Shown here piece after piece: positions 4,281-18,201 of a stretch of 20,000 nt of DNA (the stretch's first letter is position 1; every line of letters starts with the position of its first letter). This DNA is from an uncultured virus (IMG/VR IMGVR_UViG_3300032307_000587) (Duplodnaviria; Heunggongvirae; Uroviricota; Caudoviricetes): IMG/VR virus record IMGVR_UViG_3300032307_000587. The stretch is one strand, 5' to 3'. The notes beneath the pieces are model-generated. The model worked only from the letters and a program-made list of their open reading frames with translations. It did no database searches and was not told the origin of the DNA. The position numbers and the translations under genes are program-made.

Positions 4281-4613
4281 ATGACAAACGAATCAGTAAT
4301 TTTAGAAAAGCACCTTAAAAAAACAACTATCATAACAAACGTATTCTCAATGTTAGTTGCGGGATTAACAACATTAGCCGTTGTTAATTCATTTTACTAC
4401 AATACCAAAAATACTTTGTCCGAACATACGGAACAAATTACAGAAGTAAAAAAGGATGTTAAAAGCATTAAAGAGAATATCAAAGATGCACAAATATTTC
4501 AGGGCGTAAGTAATGCCGAAGTAACTGCGTTAAAAGAGAAAGTAACATCACTTGATGAAAAAGTAGATAAGATGAATGATAAGTTGGATAGAATTTTAAT
4601 GCAAACAAAATAA
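4281..4613 (+). CDS. single-TM + coiled-coil membrane protein at the start of the lysis cassette (holin/antiholin- or i-spanin-like)
   Basis: Hydrophobic segment IITNVFSMLVAGLTTLAVV followed by a heptad-rich C-terminus (VTSLDEKVDKMNDKLDRIL). Confidence 0.5.
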   Translation: MTNESVILEKHLKKTTIITNVFSMLVAGLTTLAVVNSFYYNTKNTLSEHTEQITEVKKDVKSIKENIKDAQIFQGVSNAEVTALKEKVTSLDEKVDKMNDKLDRILMQTK

Positions 4614-5329: not shown

Positions 5330-5611
5330 ATGAAACAATTTTTTAAAACATTATTCGATGATAACAACTCAATCAATGAAAAAGCAGTTGTAGGGTTTAT
5401 CGCTTTTTTTATGTTAGTAATAGCATTAGCAGTTGACTTAATTACGGGTTATACGGGCAATCATTTAATAATTAATGAATTTATATTTGATGGGTTCATG
5501 GTTATTGTTTTGGGCGCATTTGGTATAGCCTCTGTTGACAAATGGATGAACCATAGAAAAGCGAATAAAAAAGAAGATTCAAGTGAACCAACAAACGAAG
5601 AAAATAAGTAA
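5330..5611 (+). CDS. holin (2 TM, charged C-terminal tail)
   Basis: 93 aa; TMs AVVGFIAFFMLVIALAVDLI and FIFDGFMVIVLGAFGIASV; highly charged tail; immediately upstream of the endolysin. Confidence 0.7.
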   Translation: MKQFFKTLFDDNNSINEKAVVGFIAFFMLVIALAVDLITGYTGNHLIINEFIFDGFMVIVLGAFGIASVDKWMNHRKANKKEDSSEPTNEENK

Positions 5612-5631: not shown

Positions 5632-6099
5632 ATGCAAATCTCAAAACATTTAACATTAGCCGAAGTAAGTAGAAGTGAAACTGCGAAACGTAGAGGCATC
5701 AACAACACACCGAGTGGAGAACATTTAGCAAACTTTAAATTATTAGCTGAAAACATTTTTGAACCTATTCGTGAACATTTTGGTGTACCAATTCATATTT
5801 CGTCAGGGTACAGAAGCAAAGAACTCAATACCGCTATTGGCGGGAGTTTGACTTCTCAACATTGTCAGGGTGAAGCAATCGACATTGATATGGATGGTAG
5901 CACAAATGGTGTTACTAATAAAATGGTGTTTGATTTTATCAAAGACAATCTAAATTTTGACCAATTGATATATGAGTTCGGAACAGACAAGAACCCTGAT
6001 TGGGTACACGTTTCTTATGAATCAAGTGGTAAACAACGTAAGCAAATCCTAAAAGCGGTTAAATCGGGTGGTAAGACATCTTATGTGCCATATAAGTAA
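5632..6099 (+). CDS. endolysin, peptidase M15A (Zn-dependent, Hedgehog/DD-peptidase fold)
   Basis: SSGYRSKELN..IGG..TSQH..GEAIDI and WVHVSY supply the His-Asp-His zinc ligands. Confidence 0.9.
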   Translation: MQISKHLTLAEVSRSETAKRRGINNTPSGEHLANFKLLAENIFEPIREHFGVPIHISSGYRSKELNTAIGGSLTSQHCQGEAIDIDMDGSTNGVTNKMVFDFIKDNLNFDQLIYEFGTDKNPDWVHVSYESSGKQRKQILKAVKSGGKTSYVPYK

Positions 6100-6114: not shown

Positions 6115-6855
6115 GTGAAGAATTTATCAAAAGAAGAATTATTAAGCCGACTTGAGGCAATTAATCGTAGCAATGCTATTATTTACTTTGACCTCAATGG
6201 TATTATTCTTGGGGTGAATACTATTTTTTTAGAAACGATAGGTTTAGAGGAAGGTGAACACGATAAAATAATTGGCAAACACCATAGTATTTTTGTATCT
6301 CCTGAATATGCTAAATCTAAGGAATATGAAAAATTTTGGAAAACTTTGCGAAGTGGTGTTTTTTTTGAAGGGGAATTTGAAAGAATTAAGTTAAATGGTG
6401 AGCCTCTTTTTTTACAAGCAACCTACAATCCGATTTTTAATGAAAATGGTGAAGTAGCCAAAATAATGAAAATTGCTACTGATATAACCGAAAAAGTCAT
6501 TAGTAAGAAAAAAATTGATGAACTATCACAAACTTTACAAGATGAGTTAAATATTTCTAATAAGCTAAAAAACTCAATAGAGATGGAAAAAAATGCGGCA
6601 ATAAACGACTTGGATGTATTGATTAAGAAAAATCAAAGCGAATTAATCAAAGTCATTGTAAAGGTCGCACTAACAGTAATAGTTGGGGTTGGACTTGTTA
6701 CCACGATTTTATATTGGATGGCAATGATTACGGGGAAAGATACTCAAATAATAGGCTCTACATGGTCAAATATGTTTAGTGTATTGCTTACAAATGCTTT
6801 TTCGATTGTAGGAACGATAATGGGTATCAAATATGCTACGCAAGATAAGAAGTAG
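6115..6855 (+). CDS. PAS/PAC sensor domain + coiled coil + two C-terminal TM helices
   Basis: GTG start; aa 13-126 chemoreceptor-type (BdlA-like) PAS: AINRSNAIIYFDLNG.I..VN..FL, GKHHSIFV, Y..FW..L..G....GEF.R, LQATYNPI, KIATDITE; coiled coil aa 127-178; TMs at about aa 184-206 and 217-239. Confidence 0.85.
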   Translation: MKNLSKEELLSRLEAINRSNAIIYFDLNGIILGVNTIFLETIGLEEGEHDKIIGKHHSIFVSPEYAKSKEYEKFWKTLRSGVFFEGEFERIKLNGEPLFLQATYNPIFNENGEVAKIMKIATDITEKVISKKKIDELSQTLQDELNISNKLKNSIEMEKNAAINDLDVLIKKNQSELIKVIVKVALTVIVGVGLVTTILYWMAMITGKDTQIIGSTWSNMFSVLLTNAFSIVGTIMGIKYATQDKK

Positions 6856-6868
6856 GTAAGAATTACCT
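6854..6868. terminator. small hairpin at the convergent junction of the + and - gene blocks
   Basis: aggtaa-gaa-ttacct 6-bp stem overlapping both stop codons; weak, no U-tract. Confidence 0.2.
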
Positions 6869-10380: not shown

Positions 10381-10725
10381 TTATTTTATAAGTGTGCCTT
10401 GAAAATTCATTACATCATTTTTAAAGTAAACTTCGCCATTTTTCTTGATATGACCCCCTCTATTGTATTTTGCTTGTGGCATAAAGTTTATATGATTGTC
10501 TTTAGGCGTACTAACGGCTTGTACTTGAATTGCGGAAACTCCATCAAAGGATATTTCTCCGTAACCCGTTCCATCCATCCTTAGTTTACCATTGACCGTT
10601 CTGTTTGAGCCAATACCCGCACTTTGATACAGACGACCTTCAAACTCATAGGTTTTTCTTTGTTTCTCTTTTGAACACCCTACAAGGGCGAGTGCTACGA
10701 ATAGCATTAATACTAATTTTTTCAT
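10381..10725 (-). CDS. lipoprotein of unknown function
   Basis: MKKLVLMLFVALALVG-C lipobox; beta-rich mature part. Confidence 0.75.
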   Translation of the reverse strand: MKKLVLMLFVALALVGCSKEKQRKTYEFEGRLYQSAGIGSNRTVNGKLRMDGTGYGEISFDGVSAIQVQAVSTPKDNHINFMPQAKYNRGGHIKKNGEVYFKNDVMNFQGTLIK

Positions 10726-14043: not shown

Positions 14044-14391
14044 TTATTTTTTAATTTCTAAGTCTTGTTTTGTTAGTGCAAAAATAAAATTTTGAAAAGT
14101 ATGTACATATTCCAATACTACGGATGAACCATAGTCAATAAATTTACCATGACGAACAACGATTAATCTATCTTTGAAATTATATTTGAATCTGTATTGA
14201 TTTTCTTTATTGTCAAACTCATATTTTTCAAGCCCAAACATTATTAACCATCTTTCAGTAAGTAGTATTGGTTTATATGTTTTTAAGCCTTTATTATCCC
14301 AAATATCAAAAATTGACCTTGCATCAATCTTAACAACCAAATCATTGTTGTATAGATAATTCCCTATTCTAAGTTCTTTTATATCAATCAT
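14044..14391 (-). CDS. phage protein, 'ELRIGN...PI.LT..WL..FG...YVH.FQN' family, paralog 1
   Basis: Three conserved blocks shared with 14393..14797. Confidence 0.75.
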   Translation of the reverse strand: MIDIKELRIGNYLYNNDLVVKIDARSIFDIWDNKGLKTYKPILLTERWLIMFGLEKYEFDNKENQYRFKYNFKDRLIVVRHGKFIDYGSSVVLEYVHTFQNFIFALTKQDLEIKK

Positions 14392-14392
14392 T

Positions 14393-14797
14393 TTATTTTT
14401 TAATTTCTAATTCTTGTTTTTCAAGAGCAAAATATATGTTTTGAAATTGATGTACATATTCAAATTTTGCTATTGCCCATGTAGGAGGTGTTATACCATC
14501 AATGCAAAGCGAATAGCTATTATCATCGTTTAAGTAGCTTTTTAACACTCTGTATTTCCCTTTTTGCCATACATTGCATCCACTCATTTTAATGTTTGTT
14601 TTCTCAAACCCAAACTTCAACAACCATTCCTCTGTTTGTGGTATTGGTTCTATTTCATCGTATGCAGCAGCACCTATGTGTCGTGTTTTTAGATTATCTA
14701 AAGTAACACTATATTTCCTAATTTCTGACCATACACAATATGCCTCATTTTCATAATTTACTAAATTTCCTATTCTTAATTCATTTTCTTGTATCAT
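14393..14797 (-). CDS. phage protein, 'ELRIGN' family, paralog 2
   Basis: Start reassigned to MIQENELRIGN; C-terminus EYVHQFQNIYFALEKQELEIKK. Confidence 0.75.
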   Translation of the reverse strand: MIQENELRIGNLVNYENEAYCVWSEIRKYSVTLDNLKTRHIGAAAYDEIEPIPQTEEWLLKFGFEKTNIKMSGCNVWQKGKYRVLKSYLNDDNSYSLCIDGITPPTWAIAKFEYVHQFQNIYFALEKQELEIKK

Positions 14798-14801
14798 ATT
14801 A

Positions 14802-15107
14802 TTATTTTTTATTTTTTGATTTGTACAATTCAACTTCACCTTCGTATGCTGCTTTTGATAGCATCATATCAATGTCGGTTATATCACTACTTAGTTCTTT
14901 AATTATTGTTTGAACATTATATCGAGCCAATTTATGAGTAGTAACATCGTATGTTATCTCTTGATTACTTTCAATTAAATGTAGAACCAAATTCTCTTCG
15001 GTTAAACTCACTAAAAACCAATGCCTATCACTTCTAAATAGTATTCTAAATGATGTCTGTATCCTTATAAATAATGGGGTTGATTTGAACTTTTTAAATA
15101 TTTTCAT
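14802..15107 (-). CDS. hypothetical protein
   Basis: 101-aa ORF. Confidence 0.7.
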   Translation of the reverse strand: MKIFKKFKSTPLFIRIQTSFRILFRSDRHWFLVSLTEENLVLHLIESNQEITYDVTTHKLARYNVQTIIKELSSDITDIDMMLSKAAYEGEVELYKSKNKK

Positions 15108-15593: not shown

Positions 15594-15794
15594 TTATTTC
15601 CACTTTTTAATTCTATCTCTTTGTTTCTCCCATTGTCTAATCTCTTTTCTATTGTTCAGGTATTGAAAAAATAACCAACTATCTTTACTTCTTTTAATGA
15701 TATAAGACATTAGCAAAAACAATGACCCAATAAACGCCGAAATGACTAATAGCCAAAATAAAACAAACCCTACCCAATAATATATTACTTCCAT
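15594..15794 (-). CDS. small membrane protein
   Basis: N-terminal hydrophobic stretch YYWVGFVLFWLLVISAFIGSLFLLMSYII, basic tail. Confidence 0.7.
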   Translation of the reverse strand: MEVIYYWVGFVLFWLLVISAFIGSLFLLMSYIIKRSKDSWLFFQYLNNRKEIRQWEKQRDRIKKWK

Positions 15795-16135
15795 AATGTT
15801 TCAAAATAAAATTTACCATTCCACAATTTATATTTAATTGAACCCATTTTCATAGCTACTTGCATTTTAGTTTTGCTTTTAAATAAATATTCCAACTTCT
15901 CATTCAGCATTTTGTGTAACTGACCTCTATAACCCTCCAAATCAGTATGGCACTTGTATGTATTACAGTCCTTGCAACTTGGATTTAAGTTCGCTAAATC
16001 CTCTGTTCCGCCAAATATTTTTGGAGTGATGTGGTCAACGTGCCAACCTTTTGTTAATTCAACACCACAATAAGCGCATTTGCAATCATACTTATTGAAA
16101 ACAATATTTCTTATTTCTTTTTTACTATTCATCAT
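15785..16135 (-). CDS. HNH endonuclease
   Basis: CAYCG...WHVDHITPK..GGT.DLANL.PSCKDCN.YK. Confidence 0.9.
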   Translation of the reverse strand: MMNSKKEIRNIVFNKYDCKCAYCGVELTKGWHVDHITPKIFGGTEDLANLNPSCKDCNTYKCHTDLEGYRGQLHKMLNEKLEYLFKSKTKMQVAMKMGSIKYKLWNGKFYFETLWK

Positions 16136-16726: not shown

Positions 16727-17266
16727 TTATTTATAAGGGTTAAATTCTTCTGAAACTGAGATTGCCAAACCTTTTTCAATAAGGTTGTGGATGTCGATTT
16801 TCCATTCGTATAGTTTTTGTATTGTTCTATATGGCAATTCGATTAACTCATTCTTATCAAACATTAATGTCATTGCTAAGTCTTTTTCTTCGCCATAACC
16901 TAATTTTTCAATAGGCACAAAAACCAAATCTTCTCTAAATTCAGTTAGTGAGGATATGGGGAATAAGATTGGTTTAACTTCGCTCAAAAACACATCATCC
17001 TCTTCAAAGCCTAAACTTGATTGTAGCTGACCTAAAAAATAACTACCATCTTCCCACATTATTTGTGGGTTATTTTGATAAAAATATGAATTAATATATT
17101 CGCCTAAATGATTTTTAAGTTCTTTTTCATCTAAAAAAGGTATAGCTAATCTAAAAGGTTCATTTTCCATAATAGATTCATAACGCTCTGATTCTAATGG
17201 TAAAGAGTATTTCAAACCATAAGGCAAATAGCCAACTATGTGTTTTAATTCTAATTGTTCTTTCAT
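16727..17266 (-). CDS. phage protein, 'YLPYGLK...KPIL.P.S...LIEKGLAI' family, paralog 1
   Basis: Conserved N-terminal, central and C-terminal blocks shared with the next two genes. Confidence 0.8.
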   Translation of the reverse strand: MKEQLELKHIVGYLPYGLKYSLPLESERYESIMENEPFRLAIPFLDEKELKNHLGEYINSYFYQNNPQIMWEDGSYFLGQLQSSLGFEEDDVFLSEVKPILFPISSLTEFREDLVFVPIEKLGYGEEKDLAMTLMFDKNELIELPYRTIQKLYEWKIDIHNLIEKGLAISVSEEFNPYK

Positions 17267-17267
17267 A

Positions 17268-17738
17268 TTAATTGTAAGGGTTAAAGTCTTTTGTTACTGC
17301 TATTGCCAATCCTTTTCCAATTAGGTTATGGGTGTCTATTTTCCATTCGTAAAGTTTTTGAATTACCCCAAATGGCAAATATTGAACATCATTAACAATT
17401 CCATGTTTAGACAATGATTCTAAACTTCTTATTGTTTTAATATTGCCATGCTCATATTCTACACTATCATTATCATCATCGCCTATTTCAAAATATTCAA
17501 TAGGAATAAATCCCAAATCTTTTCTAAATTCAGTTAGTGAGGATATGGGGAATAAGATTGGTTTAAAACAATTTACTTGGACACTTTGGCTATATAAAAC
17601 ATGATTTAACCCGACTATTGTGTTTGTATATGATTGGCACTCCCAATCAATTGTTCTTGCTTTACCAAAATCATCTACCGCTTTTATGCCATAAGGCAAA
17701 TAGCCTACGATTTCTTCTAATTGTAATTGTTCTTTCAT
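17268..17738 (-). CDS. same family, paralog 2
   Basis: IVGYLPYGIK, KPILFPISSLTEFR, KLYEWKID..NLI.KGLAI..FNPY. Confidence 0.8.
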   Translation of the reverse strand: MKEQLQLEEIVGYLPYGIKAVDDFGKARTIDWECQSYTNTIVGLNHVLYSQSVQVNCFKPILFPISSLTEFRKDLGFIPIEYFEIGDDDNDSVEYEHGNIKTIRSLESLSKHGIVNDVQYLPFGVIQKLYEWKIDTHNLIGKGLAIAVTKDFNPYN

Positions 17739-17739
17739 G

Positions 17740-18201
17740 TTATTTGTAGGGGTTAAAATCTTCTGTAACTGCTATTGCTAATCCTTTTTCGATTAGTCCA
17801 AATACATCATAATGGTTTAAAAAAAAGAACTCCATAACTTCGTAAGGGGCTTGTAGAACCAACTTATCAATATTTTCGGCATCATCAAACCACGCATCGA
17901 AATAATCTTCGTAATGGACGCACCATTGCCCTATACCTAAGTATTTTTTAATATCATCAATGTTTTCGGATTCAAAGTTTGATAAAGGTTGTAAAATTGG
18001 TTTAAATTCAATTTCGTCATTATAATAAACATTGTAATCCGTATGGTTTTCGCCATTCCATCTTTCTTCGCCATTTACTAATAATGTTAAATCCATTAAT
18101 TTATCAATTCCTAATAATTCATGTACATAGTTCGCACTACTTACCATTTTCAAACCATAAGGCAAATAGCCTACAATTTCTTTTAATTCTAATTTATTCA
18201 T
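17740..18201 (-). CDS. same family, paralog 3
   Basis: IVGYLPYGLK, KPILQPLS, DVFGLIEKGLAIAVTEDFNPYK. Confidence 0.8.
   Translation of the reverse strand: MNKLELKEIVGYLPYGLKMVSSANYVHELLGIDKLMDLTLLVNGEERWNGENHTDYNVYYNDEIEFKPILQPLSNFESENIDDIKKYLGIGQWCVHYEDYFDAWFDDAENIDKLVLQAPYEVMEFFFLNHYDVFGLIEKGLAIAVTEDFNPYK

Follow-up and report, generated by a model that had tools for sequence, protein, structure and literature searches.

A PAS sensor joined to an invariant membrane hairpin in phage lysis cassettes, a candidate module for adjusting lysis timing

Lysis timing sets the burst size and fitness of a phage, and in the systems studied so far it is determined by the accumulation of holin, with superinfection-responsive antiholins contributing in a few of them. 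Sensors are also linked to lysis via transcription, as in the Firmicutes, where the two-component system LytSR is coupled to the holin-like proteins CidA and LrgA, and in phage VP882, whose PAS-type receptor VqmA-Phi triggers the lytic programme. Precedents for adjustable lysis come from phages T4 and P1. In T4, the antiholin RI binds holin T and blocks its oligomerization (PMC11413866, PMC8385771), and in P1 several holin-like proteins are described as cooperating to adapt lysis to host and growth conditions (PMC9025707). Here we analyzed a 20,000-nucleotide stretch of an uncultured lake virus (IMG/VR record IMGVR_UViG_3300032307_000587; hereafter the window, meaning the whole stretch), in which the gene that ends the lysis cassette encodes a PAS sensor domain joined by a helix to a hairpin of two transmembrane (TM) segments. 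This PAS-hairpin protein is best read as an accessory inner-membrane signaling protein that belongs to the lysis cassette and couples lysis timing to a sensor, a reading to which we assign a probability of roughly 0.55.

T4 lysis inhibition, with holin T, periplasmic RI and cytoplasmic RIII, is the closest system in logic, as a phage accessory protein there makes lysis timing signal-dependent. RI is secreted into the periplasm and senses superinfection, whereas here a cytoplasmic PAS domain is fused to a membrane hairpin and the neighboring holin is not constant; neither RI nor RIII has any sequence or architectural relation to the window protein. Membrane anatomy is closest to that of class II holins and pinholins (S21 68 of phage 21, LydD of P1) and dual-start antiholins (lambda S107), the likeness being a (here predicted) N-in/C-in two-TM hairpin with a charged C terminus, encoded next to an endolysin gene. 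In S21, one TM segment regulates the other. Those proteins are sensorless, very diverse and about 70–110 residues long, whereas the protein discussed here has 246–372 residues, at least 180 of them predicted to be cytoplasmic, and an invariant second TM segment, is optional and matches no holin model. PAS/LOV sensor kinases (the chimeras 4gcz and 8a7f, NifL and MmoS), which were the top Foldseek matches, share the PAS fold, the DIT-type junction and the long signal helix, but their output passes through a DHp/CA core instead of a membrane hairpin; related phage loci do place the same PAS subtype on a HATPase_c kinase. Unlike LytSR–Cid/Lrg and VqmA-Phi, the sensor is here fused to the membrane module, or linked to it via a receiver and a short N-terminal domain (N-domain), and the genes are phage-borne and located in the lysis cassette. 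Such a fusion or link implies post-translational control. Family membership beyond ‘PAS domain’ cannot be claimed, and a full-text literature search, judged by titles and the beginnings of abstracts, returned no description of a PAS-bearing lysis protein or of a phage two-component system tied to lysis.

The 246-residue protein opens with a PAS domain that ends in a DIT motif, from which a single helix runs without a break into a tight membrane hairpin followed by a basic tail (Table 1). Its N terminus coincides in the alignment with the family start, MKNLSKEELL. Hydrophobicity begins after K183, with the core of TM1 at about residues 184–206, a loop of G207-K208-D209, TM2 at about 210–238 and the tail KYATQDKK. 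An AlphaFold2 model (21 homologs, mean predicted local distance difference test score 76.8) placed the PAS fold at residues 21–123, followed by an unbroken helix at 125–206, a turn and a second helix at 211–243. TM2 is amphipathic (Kyte-Doolittle hydrophobic moment, 0.85 per residue), with a stripe of Ser, Thr, Asn and Gly on one face. An N-in/C-in topology of the hairpin is likely, because the 180-residue N-terminal part lacks a signal sequence and lysines occur at both cytoplasmic ends. Of the features of class II holins, the protein has two TM segments, a basic tail and endolysin adjacency and probably the topology, but not the size, which stays below approximately 150 residues in that class. 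A Pfam scan of the protein found no kinase, MCP-signal, GGDEF or HTH domain, and the signaling domain of methyl-accepting chemotaxis proteins (MCP; PF00015) was found neither in it nor in 68 scanned representatives bearing the hairpin. The initial annotation had described this same anatomy without a conventional output domain, and a start 15 bp after the stop of the M15 endolysin gene in the same direction; Pfam, NCBIfam and the structural model bear out the former, and the 15-nucleotide gap (stop ending at 6099, start at 6115) the latter. Of the profile and structure searches that it had suggested, those of the PAS half matched PAS models and folds, and profile scans of the protein (Pfam, PHROGs and NCBIfam) matched no holin family outside that half.

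The sensor half was assigned by both profiles and fold. PAS_9 matched residues 22–126 (Pfam, E 2.4e-11, 44.3 bits against a cut-off of 27), PAS_3, PAS_4 and PAS also matched, and the sensory_box model TIGR00229 was the only NCBIfam model above its cut-off (residues 15–128, 50.8 bits against 22.9). The model contains a five-stranded antiparallel sheet (strands 21–25, 30–34, 84–91, 97–108 and 114–123) with flanking helices, and Foldseek gave a probability of 1.00 to many PAS/LOV structures, including short LOV proteins with a C-terminal helix (LOV-Jalpha), LOV-kinase chimeras, NifL, MmoS and the PAS domain of DosP. By sequence, the closest solved PAS domain was 3ewk (MmoS; E 1.4e-5), with a fold alignment at a root mean square deviation of 2.7 Å and 24% identity, followed by Aer (8dik, E 1.3e-3), in whose alignment the stretch ‘RHPDMP’ lies opposite ‘VSPEYA’. 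The protein contains no cysteine and thus lacks the residue that forms the LOV adduct, so it is not a canonical LOV photoreceptor. The domain may lean toward flavin or redox sensing, as suggested by its weak similarity to solved PAS domains of those types (3ewk, Aer, NifL and MmoS).

We next assessed where relatives of the gene occur. Searches returned 5271 homologous proteins at E<=1e-3, the best being PAS-PAS-helix-hairpin forms of about 370 residues, and 239 IMG/VR stretches encoding a relative, so the observation is not due to chance. Of these stretches, 80 viral loci were retained (70 single-PAS and 10 double-PAS); the locus list also includes a cellular locus, L081, without endolysin. 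Open reading frames (ORFs) were called anew, four neighbors per side were clustered and cluster representatives annotated; the simple gene caller overlooked h78, the holin-candidate family of the window, in at least three loci, so that neighborhood counts are lower bounds. An endolysin of the M15, GH19 or GH24 type, which are unrelated families, was encoded within three genes of the PAS gene in 76/80 viral loci. The exceptions were L032, which ends directly after the gene, L018, where h78 and a spanin-like gene follow, L076, where h78 precedes, and L003, where h78 precedes and a GH19-like motif was recognized by eye at +5. Neighbor clusters comprised the M15_3 endolysin (49 loci), a GH19 endolysin (phrog_181; 21), a GH24 phage lysozyme (PF00959; 10), h78 (at least 51/82 loci, 32 times at −1) and Phage_holin_4_1 (at least 10 loci), and proteins with a lipobox and a C-terminal TM segment near the PAS gene resembled unimolecular spanins, with no family match. 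Homologs thus sit in lysis cassettes; the opposite outcome, homologs located mostly outside lysis modules, had been named by the initial annotation as speaking against its idea.

Membership in the cassette holds across otherwise unrelated phage backbones. When 48 window ORFs were searched against the loci, those widely shared were the PAS gene, the endolysin (48/80 viral loci, where relatives at 58–88% identity adjoin the PAS gene) and h78. The gene accordingly moves with lysis genes across unrelated phages, since only endolysin and h78 are shared with the window. Gene order is variable, being mostly h78, PAS gene, endolysin (20 times with M15 and 9 with GH19), and endolysin followed by the PAS gene in the window. 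A labeled lysis gene lay within two genes on both sides in 40/81 copies, on one side in 38 and on neither in 3, and the gene is coupled to its neighbors in the manner of an operon (median gap to the adjoining lysis gene −4 nucleotides over 111 junctions). Additional small ORFs of 63–75 residues with one or two TM segments were seen directly upstream of h78 in several cassettes (for example L029:1685-1876 and L066:3938-4382), so a single phage here may encode two or more holin-like proteins. The idea that the hairpin protein is the sole holin of L025, L029, L048 and L066 was rejected after a finer ORF scan revealed h78 and other small two-TM ORFs there. Very basic ORFs of 41–45 residues ending in YRGQGR also recur beside lysis cassettes (clusters of 13 and 5 loci, e.g. 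L063:5646-5771 and L015:7470-7607).

The gene is optional. A scan centered on the endolysin yielded 80 loci with a 77–88% identical endolysin, 26 of them with the hairpin motif. Flanks of 1.5 kb or more on each side were available in 51 loci, of which 19 had the hairpin and 32 lacked it. L182 and L179 share 93% nucleotide identity over the endolysin, h78 and a gene for a 153-residue TM protein, after which L182 continues with a 1265-nucleotide segment carrying a PAS-PAS-hairpin gene and L179 has 661 nucleotides without a comparable ORF, before synteny returns at a gene for a 405-residue protein (a separate neighbor cluster, Mphos323, is a metallophosphoesterase and distinct from that gene). 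Because L179 retains the endolysin, h78 and the 153-residue TM protein, the cassette is evidently complete without the PAS-hairpin gene. This optionality, together with the other holin candidates that usually adjoin, makes it unlikely that the PAS-hairpin protein is an essential holin.

TM2 is under extreme constraint. A block of 33 residues, T210–T242, was identical in 81/81 copies, while the DNA encoding it occurred in 56 versions that used every synonymous codon, including switches between TCN and AGY serine codons, such that synonymous sites are saturated. The reading frame was intact in all copies examined. TM1 occurs in two flavors, which do not sort with the type of neighboring holin candidate, and h78 proteins differ widely from one another (mean column identity in the alignment, 30%). 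As the holin candidates have diverged while TM2 is invariant, a target common to all such infections is favored over a lock-and-key antiholin.

The hairpin also occurs as an exchangeable module. A profile of linker and hairpin returned 111 matches at E<=1e-3 among 1.84 billion protein-cluster representatives, with architectures assessed by Pfam scan of 68 of these and by sequence inspection. Sensors fused to the hairpin were PAS (P0177, P0191, P0219), PAS-PAS (P0178) and GAF (P0185, 360 residues), while most representatives had 180–230 residues consisting of the N-domain (about 45 residues, not assigned to a family), a coiled coil and the hairpin, and short forms had only a coiled coil and hairpin without a globular sensor (P0212, P0218, P0194). 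Other matches were probable chimeras or deletion products (SOUL, TsaD and GT2 fragments; fusions of kinase TM regions with the hairpin), which suggests frequent recombination within the module. In P0205, P0247 and P0225, apparent deletion products, the N-terminal TM region of a kinase or a PAS stub is joined directly to the hairpin.

The N-domain form was present in at least 570 IMG/VR stretches, and its gene was located in 79/80 retained loci. A PAS/HATPase_c kinase gene was encoded directly upstream in 70/79 and a single-domain Response_reg gene in 68/79, whereas a Pfam scan of the window cassette found neither a HATPase_c kinase nor a Response_reg gene. Phage contigs among loci L082-L161 carry this three-gene form, with a membrane-anchored kinase and a 145-residue receiver directly upstream of the N-domain hairpin protein (e.g. 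L103:4338-5570, L121:1385-1822 and L157:1085-3220); one kinase is a GAF-PAS-PAS-kinase of 711 residues, and L155 and L157 lack the receiver, their kinase gene directly adjoining the hairpin gene. The window PAS domain was 48% and 43% identical to the kinase-proximal PAS domain of two of these kinases, compared to 24% for the best PDB match, indicating that a single sensor subtype serves both the chain of kinase, receiver and hairpin protein and, as in the window, the hairpin directly. This exchange of inputs on one hairpin, which is joined to PAS, PAS-PAS, GAF or an N-domain encoded after a phage kinase and receiver, lends weight to the proposal in the initial annotation that the membrane segment serves as the output.

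In the sequences sampled, the hairpin was confined to viruses. Five Atlas clusters sharing its fold were 91–100% viral, and members of the family are plentiful in viromes from lakes and the sea, as represented by the 239 and at least 570 IMG/VR stretches above. The hairpin profile had no match in 401 sampled genomes of one bacterial phylum, a weak result as the search lacked a positive control, and a feature-based search of the ESM Atlas gave no usable match. Two PAS-only matches were seen, one among deposited phage records (MT836939, 41% identity over residues 4–143) and one in the Sphingomonadales chromosome of L081 (40% identity), which has a non-lysis context and was found with scan patterns mostly derived from PAS and not aimed at the hairpin.

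The window is phage DNA with a G+C content of 30.8%. Its plus-strand block, of genes with PHROG matches or no family, terminates in the lysis cassette (Table 1), with the PAS gene as the final plus-strand gene ahead of a long minus-strand block of small genes that starts at 6863 and includes an HNH endonuclease (15785-16135) and a phrog_624 DNA-binding protein. For the h78 protein of the window, no family was found in Pfam, PHROG or NCBIfam. Matches of the protein encoded at 4281-4613 to the Rz-like spanin families phrog_739 and phrog_7686 (E ~1e-3) and to coiled-coil Pfam families were weak and did not reach the cut-off. Within the cassette, a DUF2272 gene precedes the holin candidate, and its position suggests a role in lysis; its product may be a second, membrane-tethered wall-acting enzyme. 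The minus-strand block also encodes three tandem paralogs of phrog_10841 (16727-18201) and two of phrog_10066 (14044-14839), as well as a protein (10381-10725) with a weak N-terminal match (E 3.6e-5, residues 1–35) to the PHROG family of Cor superinfection-exclusion proteins.

Table 1 The lysis cassette of the window and the parts of its PAS-hairpin gene (aa, amino acids; positions count from the first nucleotide of the window)
Feature	Position	Strand	Basis
Candidate i-spanin-like cassette member, 110 aa, N-terminal TM (~aa 17-33) and coiled coil	4281..4613	+	Hydropathy; weak PHROG matches
DUF2272 protein, 230 aa, N-terminal TM/signal-anchor-like segment	4615..5307	+	PF10030 E 3.8e-28; TM aa 13-29 (hydropathy)
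Holin candidate, h78 family, 93 aa, two TM, charged C-terminal tail	5330..5611	+	Members beside the PAS gene in at least 51/82 loci
Endolysin, Peptidase_M15_3, 155 aa	5632..6099	+	PF08291 E 1.8e-20; phrog_894 E 3.4e-40
Gene for PAS domain, linker helix and membrane hairpin, 246 aa, GTG start	6115..6855	+	ORF, Pfam, model
PAS domain, aa 13-126, ends D123-I124-T125	6151..6492	+	Pfam, TIGR00229, model, fold matches
Cytoplasmic linker helix, aa 125-183, continuous with TM1	6487..6663	+	Single DSSP helix 125-206 in model
TM1, ~aa 184-206, variable, two flavors (…LYW… or …MYSFA…)	6664..6732	+	Hydropathy, alignment, flavor table
Invariant TM2 block, aa 210-242, amphipathic, Ser/Thr/Asn/Gly face	6742..6840	+	Identity across copies; hydrophobic moment
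Basic tail QDKK and stop codon	6841..6855	+	Translation

A mechanism consistent with an accessory timing module can be outlined. The PAS-hairpin protein would be made late, alongside the holin candidate and endolysin, and its PAS domain, whose nearest solved relatives are of the flavin-binding or redox type, would bind a cue in the cytoplasm. The DIT junction and unbroken helix would pass the state of the PAS domain directly into TM1 of an N-in/C-in hairpin with a periplasmic turn of three residues, with transmission probably occurring within a parallel dimer, as in other PAS and coiled-coil sensors. TM1 would then reposition the invariant, amphipathic TM2, the presumed effector, which would advance or delay membrane permeabilization and access of the endolysin to the wall depending on the PAS state. 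TM2 might act on the membrane or the membrane potential, on itself by oligomerizing, or on a conserved membrane protein of the host. A broader and more tentative possibility is that phages own a signaling pathway for lysis, in which either the one-piece PAS-hairpin protein or a relay from kinase to receiver to N-domain hairpin reads the redox or energy state of the host and switches the hairpin as a holin-independent trigger; the hairpin might for example dissipate the membrane potential and thereby fire whatever holin is present.

Other roles within lysis have to be weighed against this reading, and the initial annotation had left it between a holin, an antiholin and a pore. Three findings favor an accessory timing module over an essential holin: the gene is optional, other holin candidates usually adjoin it, and the holin and endolysin families that accompany it vary. 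Lysis-cassette membership speaks for the earlier idea, and the 32/51 cassettes lacking the gene speak against an essential holin. If the protein were nevertheless a sensor-gated holin or pinholin, TM2 would oligomerize via its polar face and the PAS domain and linker would hold it off until the cue arrives. The predicted N-in/C-in two-TM hairpin, charged C-terminal tail and endolysin adjacency match class II holin anatomy, TM2 is amphipathic with its polar stripe, and coiled-coil-hairpin forms without a globular sensor exist; moreover, in L077-L080 (6001-8041) a double-PAS hairpin gene and a 280-residue endolysin of the GH19 cluster form an isolated two-gene plus-strand unit between minus-strand genes, with no further small TM gene within 3 kb on that strand. 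We still regard a holin as unlikely, as the same-endolysin cassette of L179 does without the gene and keeps the endolysin, h78 and the 153-residue TM protein, h78, Phage_holin_4_1 or small two-TM proteins adjoin in most loci, no holin family model matched, 246–372 residues is far above known holin size and absolute sequence invariance is atypical of holins. Slightly less probable again is a classical antiholin, with the hairpin binding h78 or another holin and blocking its oligomerization until the PAS state changes, like RI and RIII on T4 holin T. The frequency of h78 as the commonest immediate neighbor and the overlaps of start and stop codons with neighboring genes would suit this role, and T4 lysis inhibition provides a precedent for signal-dependent inhibition of a holin (PMC11413866, PMC8385771). 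Such an interface would, however, require an unchanging hairpin to fit a holin that has strongly diverged, the flavor of TM1 does not track holin type, at least 10 loci have Phage_holin_4_1 and some have other TM proteins instead, and no homology between the hairpin and h78 was found (hhalign probability 5%).

Explanations outside lysis were assessed as well. An accessory gene with a role in superinfection exclusion, counter-defense or manipulation of the host membrane could have lodged in the late or lysis region. In favor of this, the gene is optional and occupies a replaceable segment between conserved flanks, the window copy lies at the edge of its operon, 38/81 copies have a lysis gene on a single side, and a helix that never varies could be fitted to a conserved membrane protein of the host. 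We find this doubtful to the same degree as the holin, given that in many loci the gene separates the holin candidate from the endolysin, with overlaps of 4 nucleotides, and that it stays linked to lysis genes although the endolysins are of three families, gene order changes and the backbones are unrelated, which exceeds what an insertion hot spot would lead one to expect. That the gene is the decaying remnant of a PAS chemoreceptor or sensor kinase, taken up from a host and without a function of its own, is very improbable. Many homologs are labeled ‘methyl-accepting chemotaxis protein’ by JGI and the PAS subtype resembles that of Aer-type receptors, but the intact frame of every copy examined, extreme purifying selection, the existence of thousands of homologs, the absence of the hairpin from the 401 bacterial genomes (searched without a positive control) and the viral Atlas clusters speak against it. 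The reading as a truncated host chemoreceptor, the other outcome that the initial annotation had named as adverse, was rejected on the conservation of TM2, the architectures without an MCP domain and the viral clusters.

Several points weigh against an accessory lysis-timing module. Involvement in lysis is deduced from gene position, and accessory ‘moron’ genes unrelated to lysis can lodge beside lysis genes. Among N-domain loci, a labeled lysis gene was seen within four genes in at least 31/79, a lower bound as unlabeled genes are unannotated, and this count would also suit a gene that has no part in lysis. Known holins and antiholins are diverse, and the total invariance of TM2 is unlike them and could point to a target outside lysis. 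The L077-L080 arrangement suits a holin better than a modulator. No holin or antiholin family in Pfam, PHROGs or NCBIfam matched the hairpin region of the window protein, and two queries for the hairpin in deposited phage genomes returned 0/50,697 records. The sequencing runs listed comprised 14 DNA metagenomes, with no RNA run among them.

If the PAS-hairpin protein does act as an accessory timing module, phages match the moment of lysis to the physiology of the cell they have infected, either via a fused sensor or via a phage-encoded two-component relay. The hairpin protein would then offer a defined, small and testable object in which to follow the passage of a PAS signal into a membrane helix.

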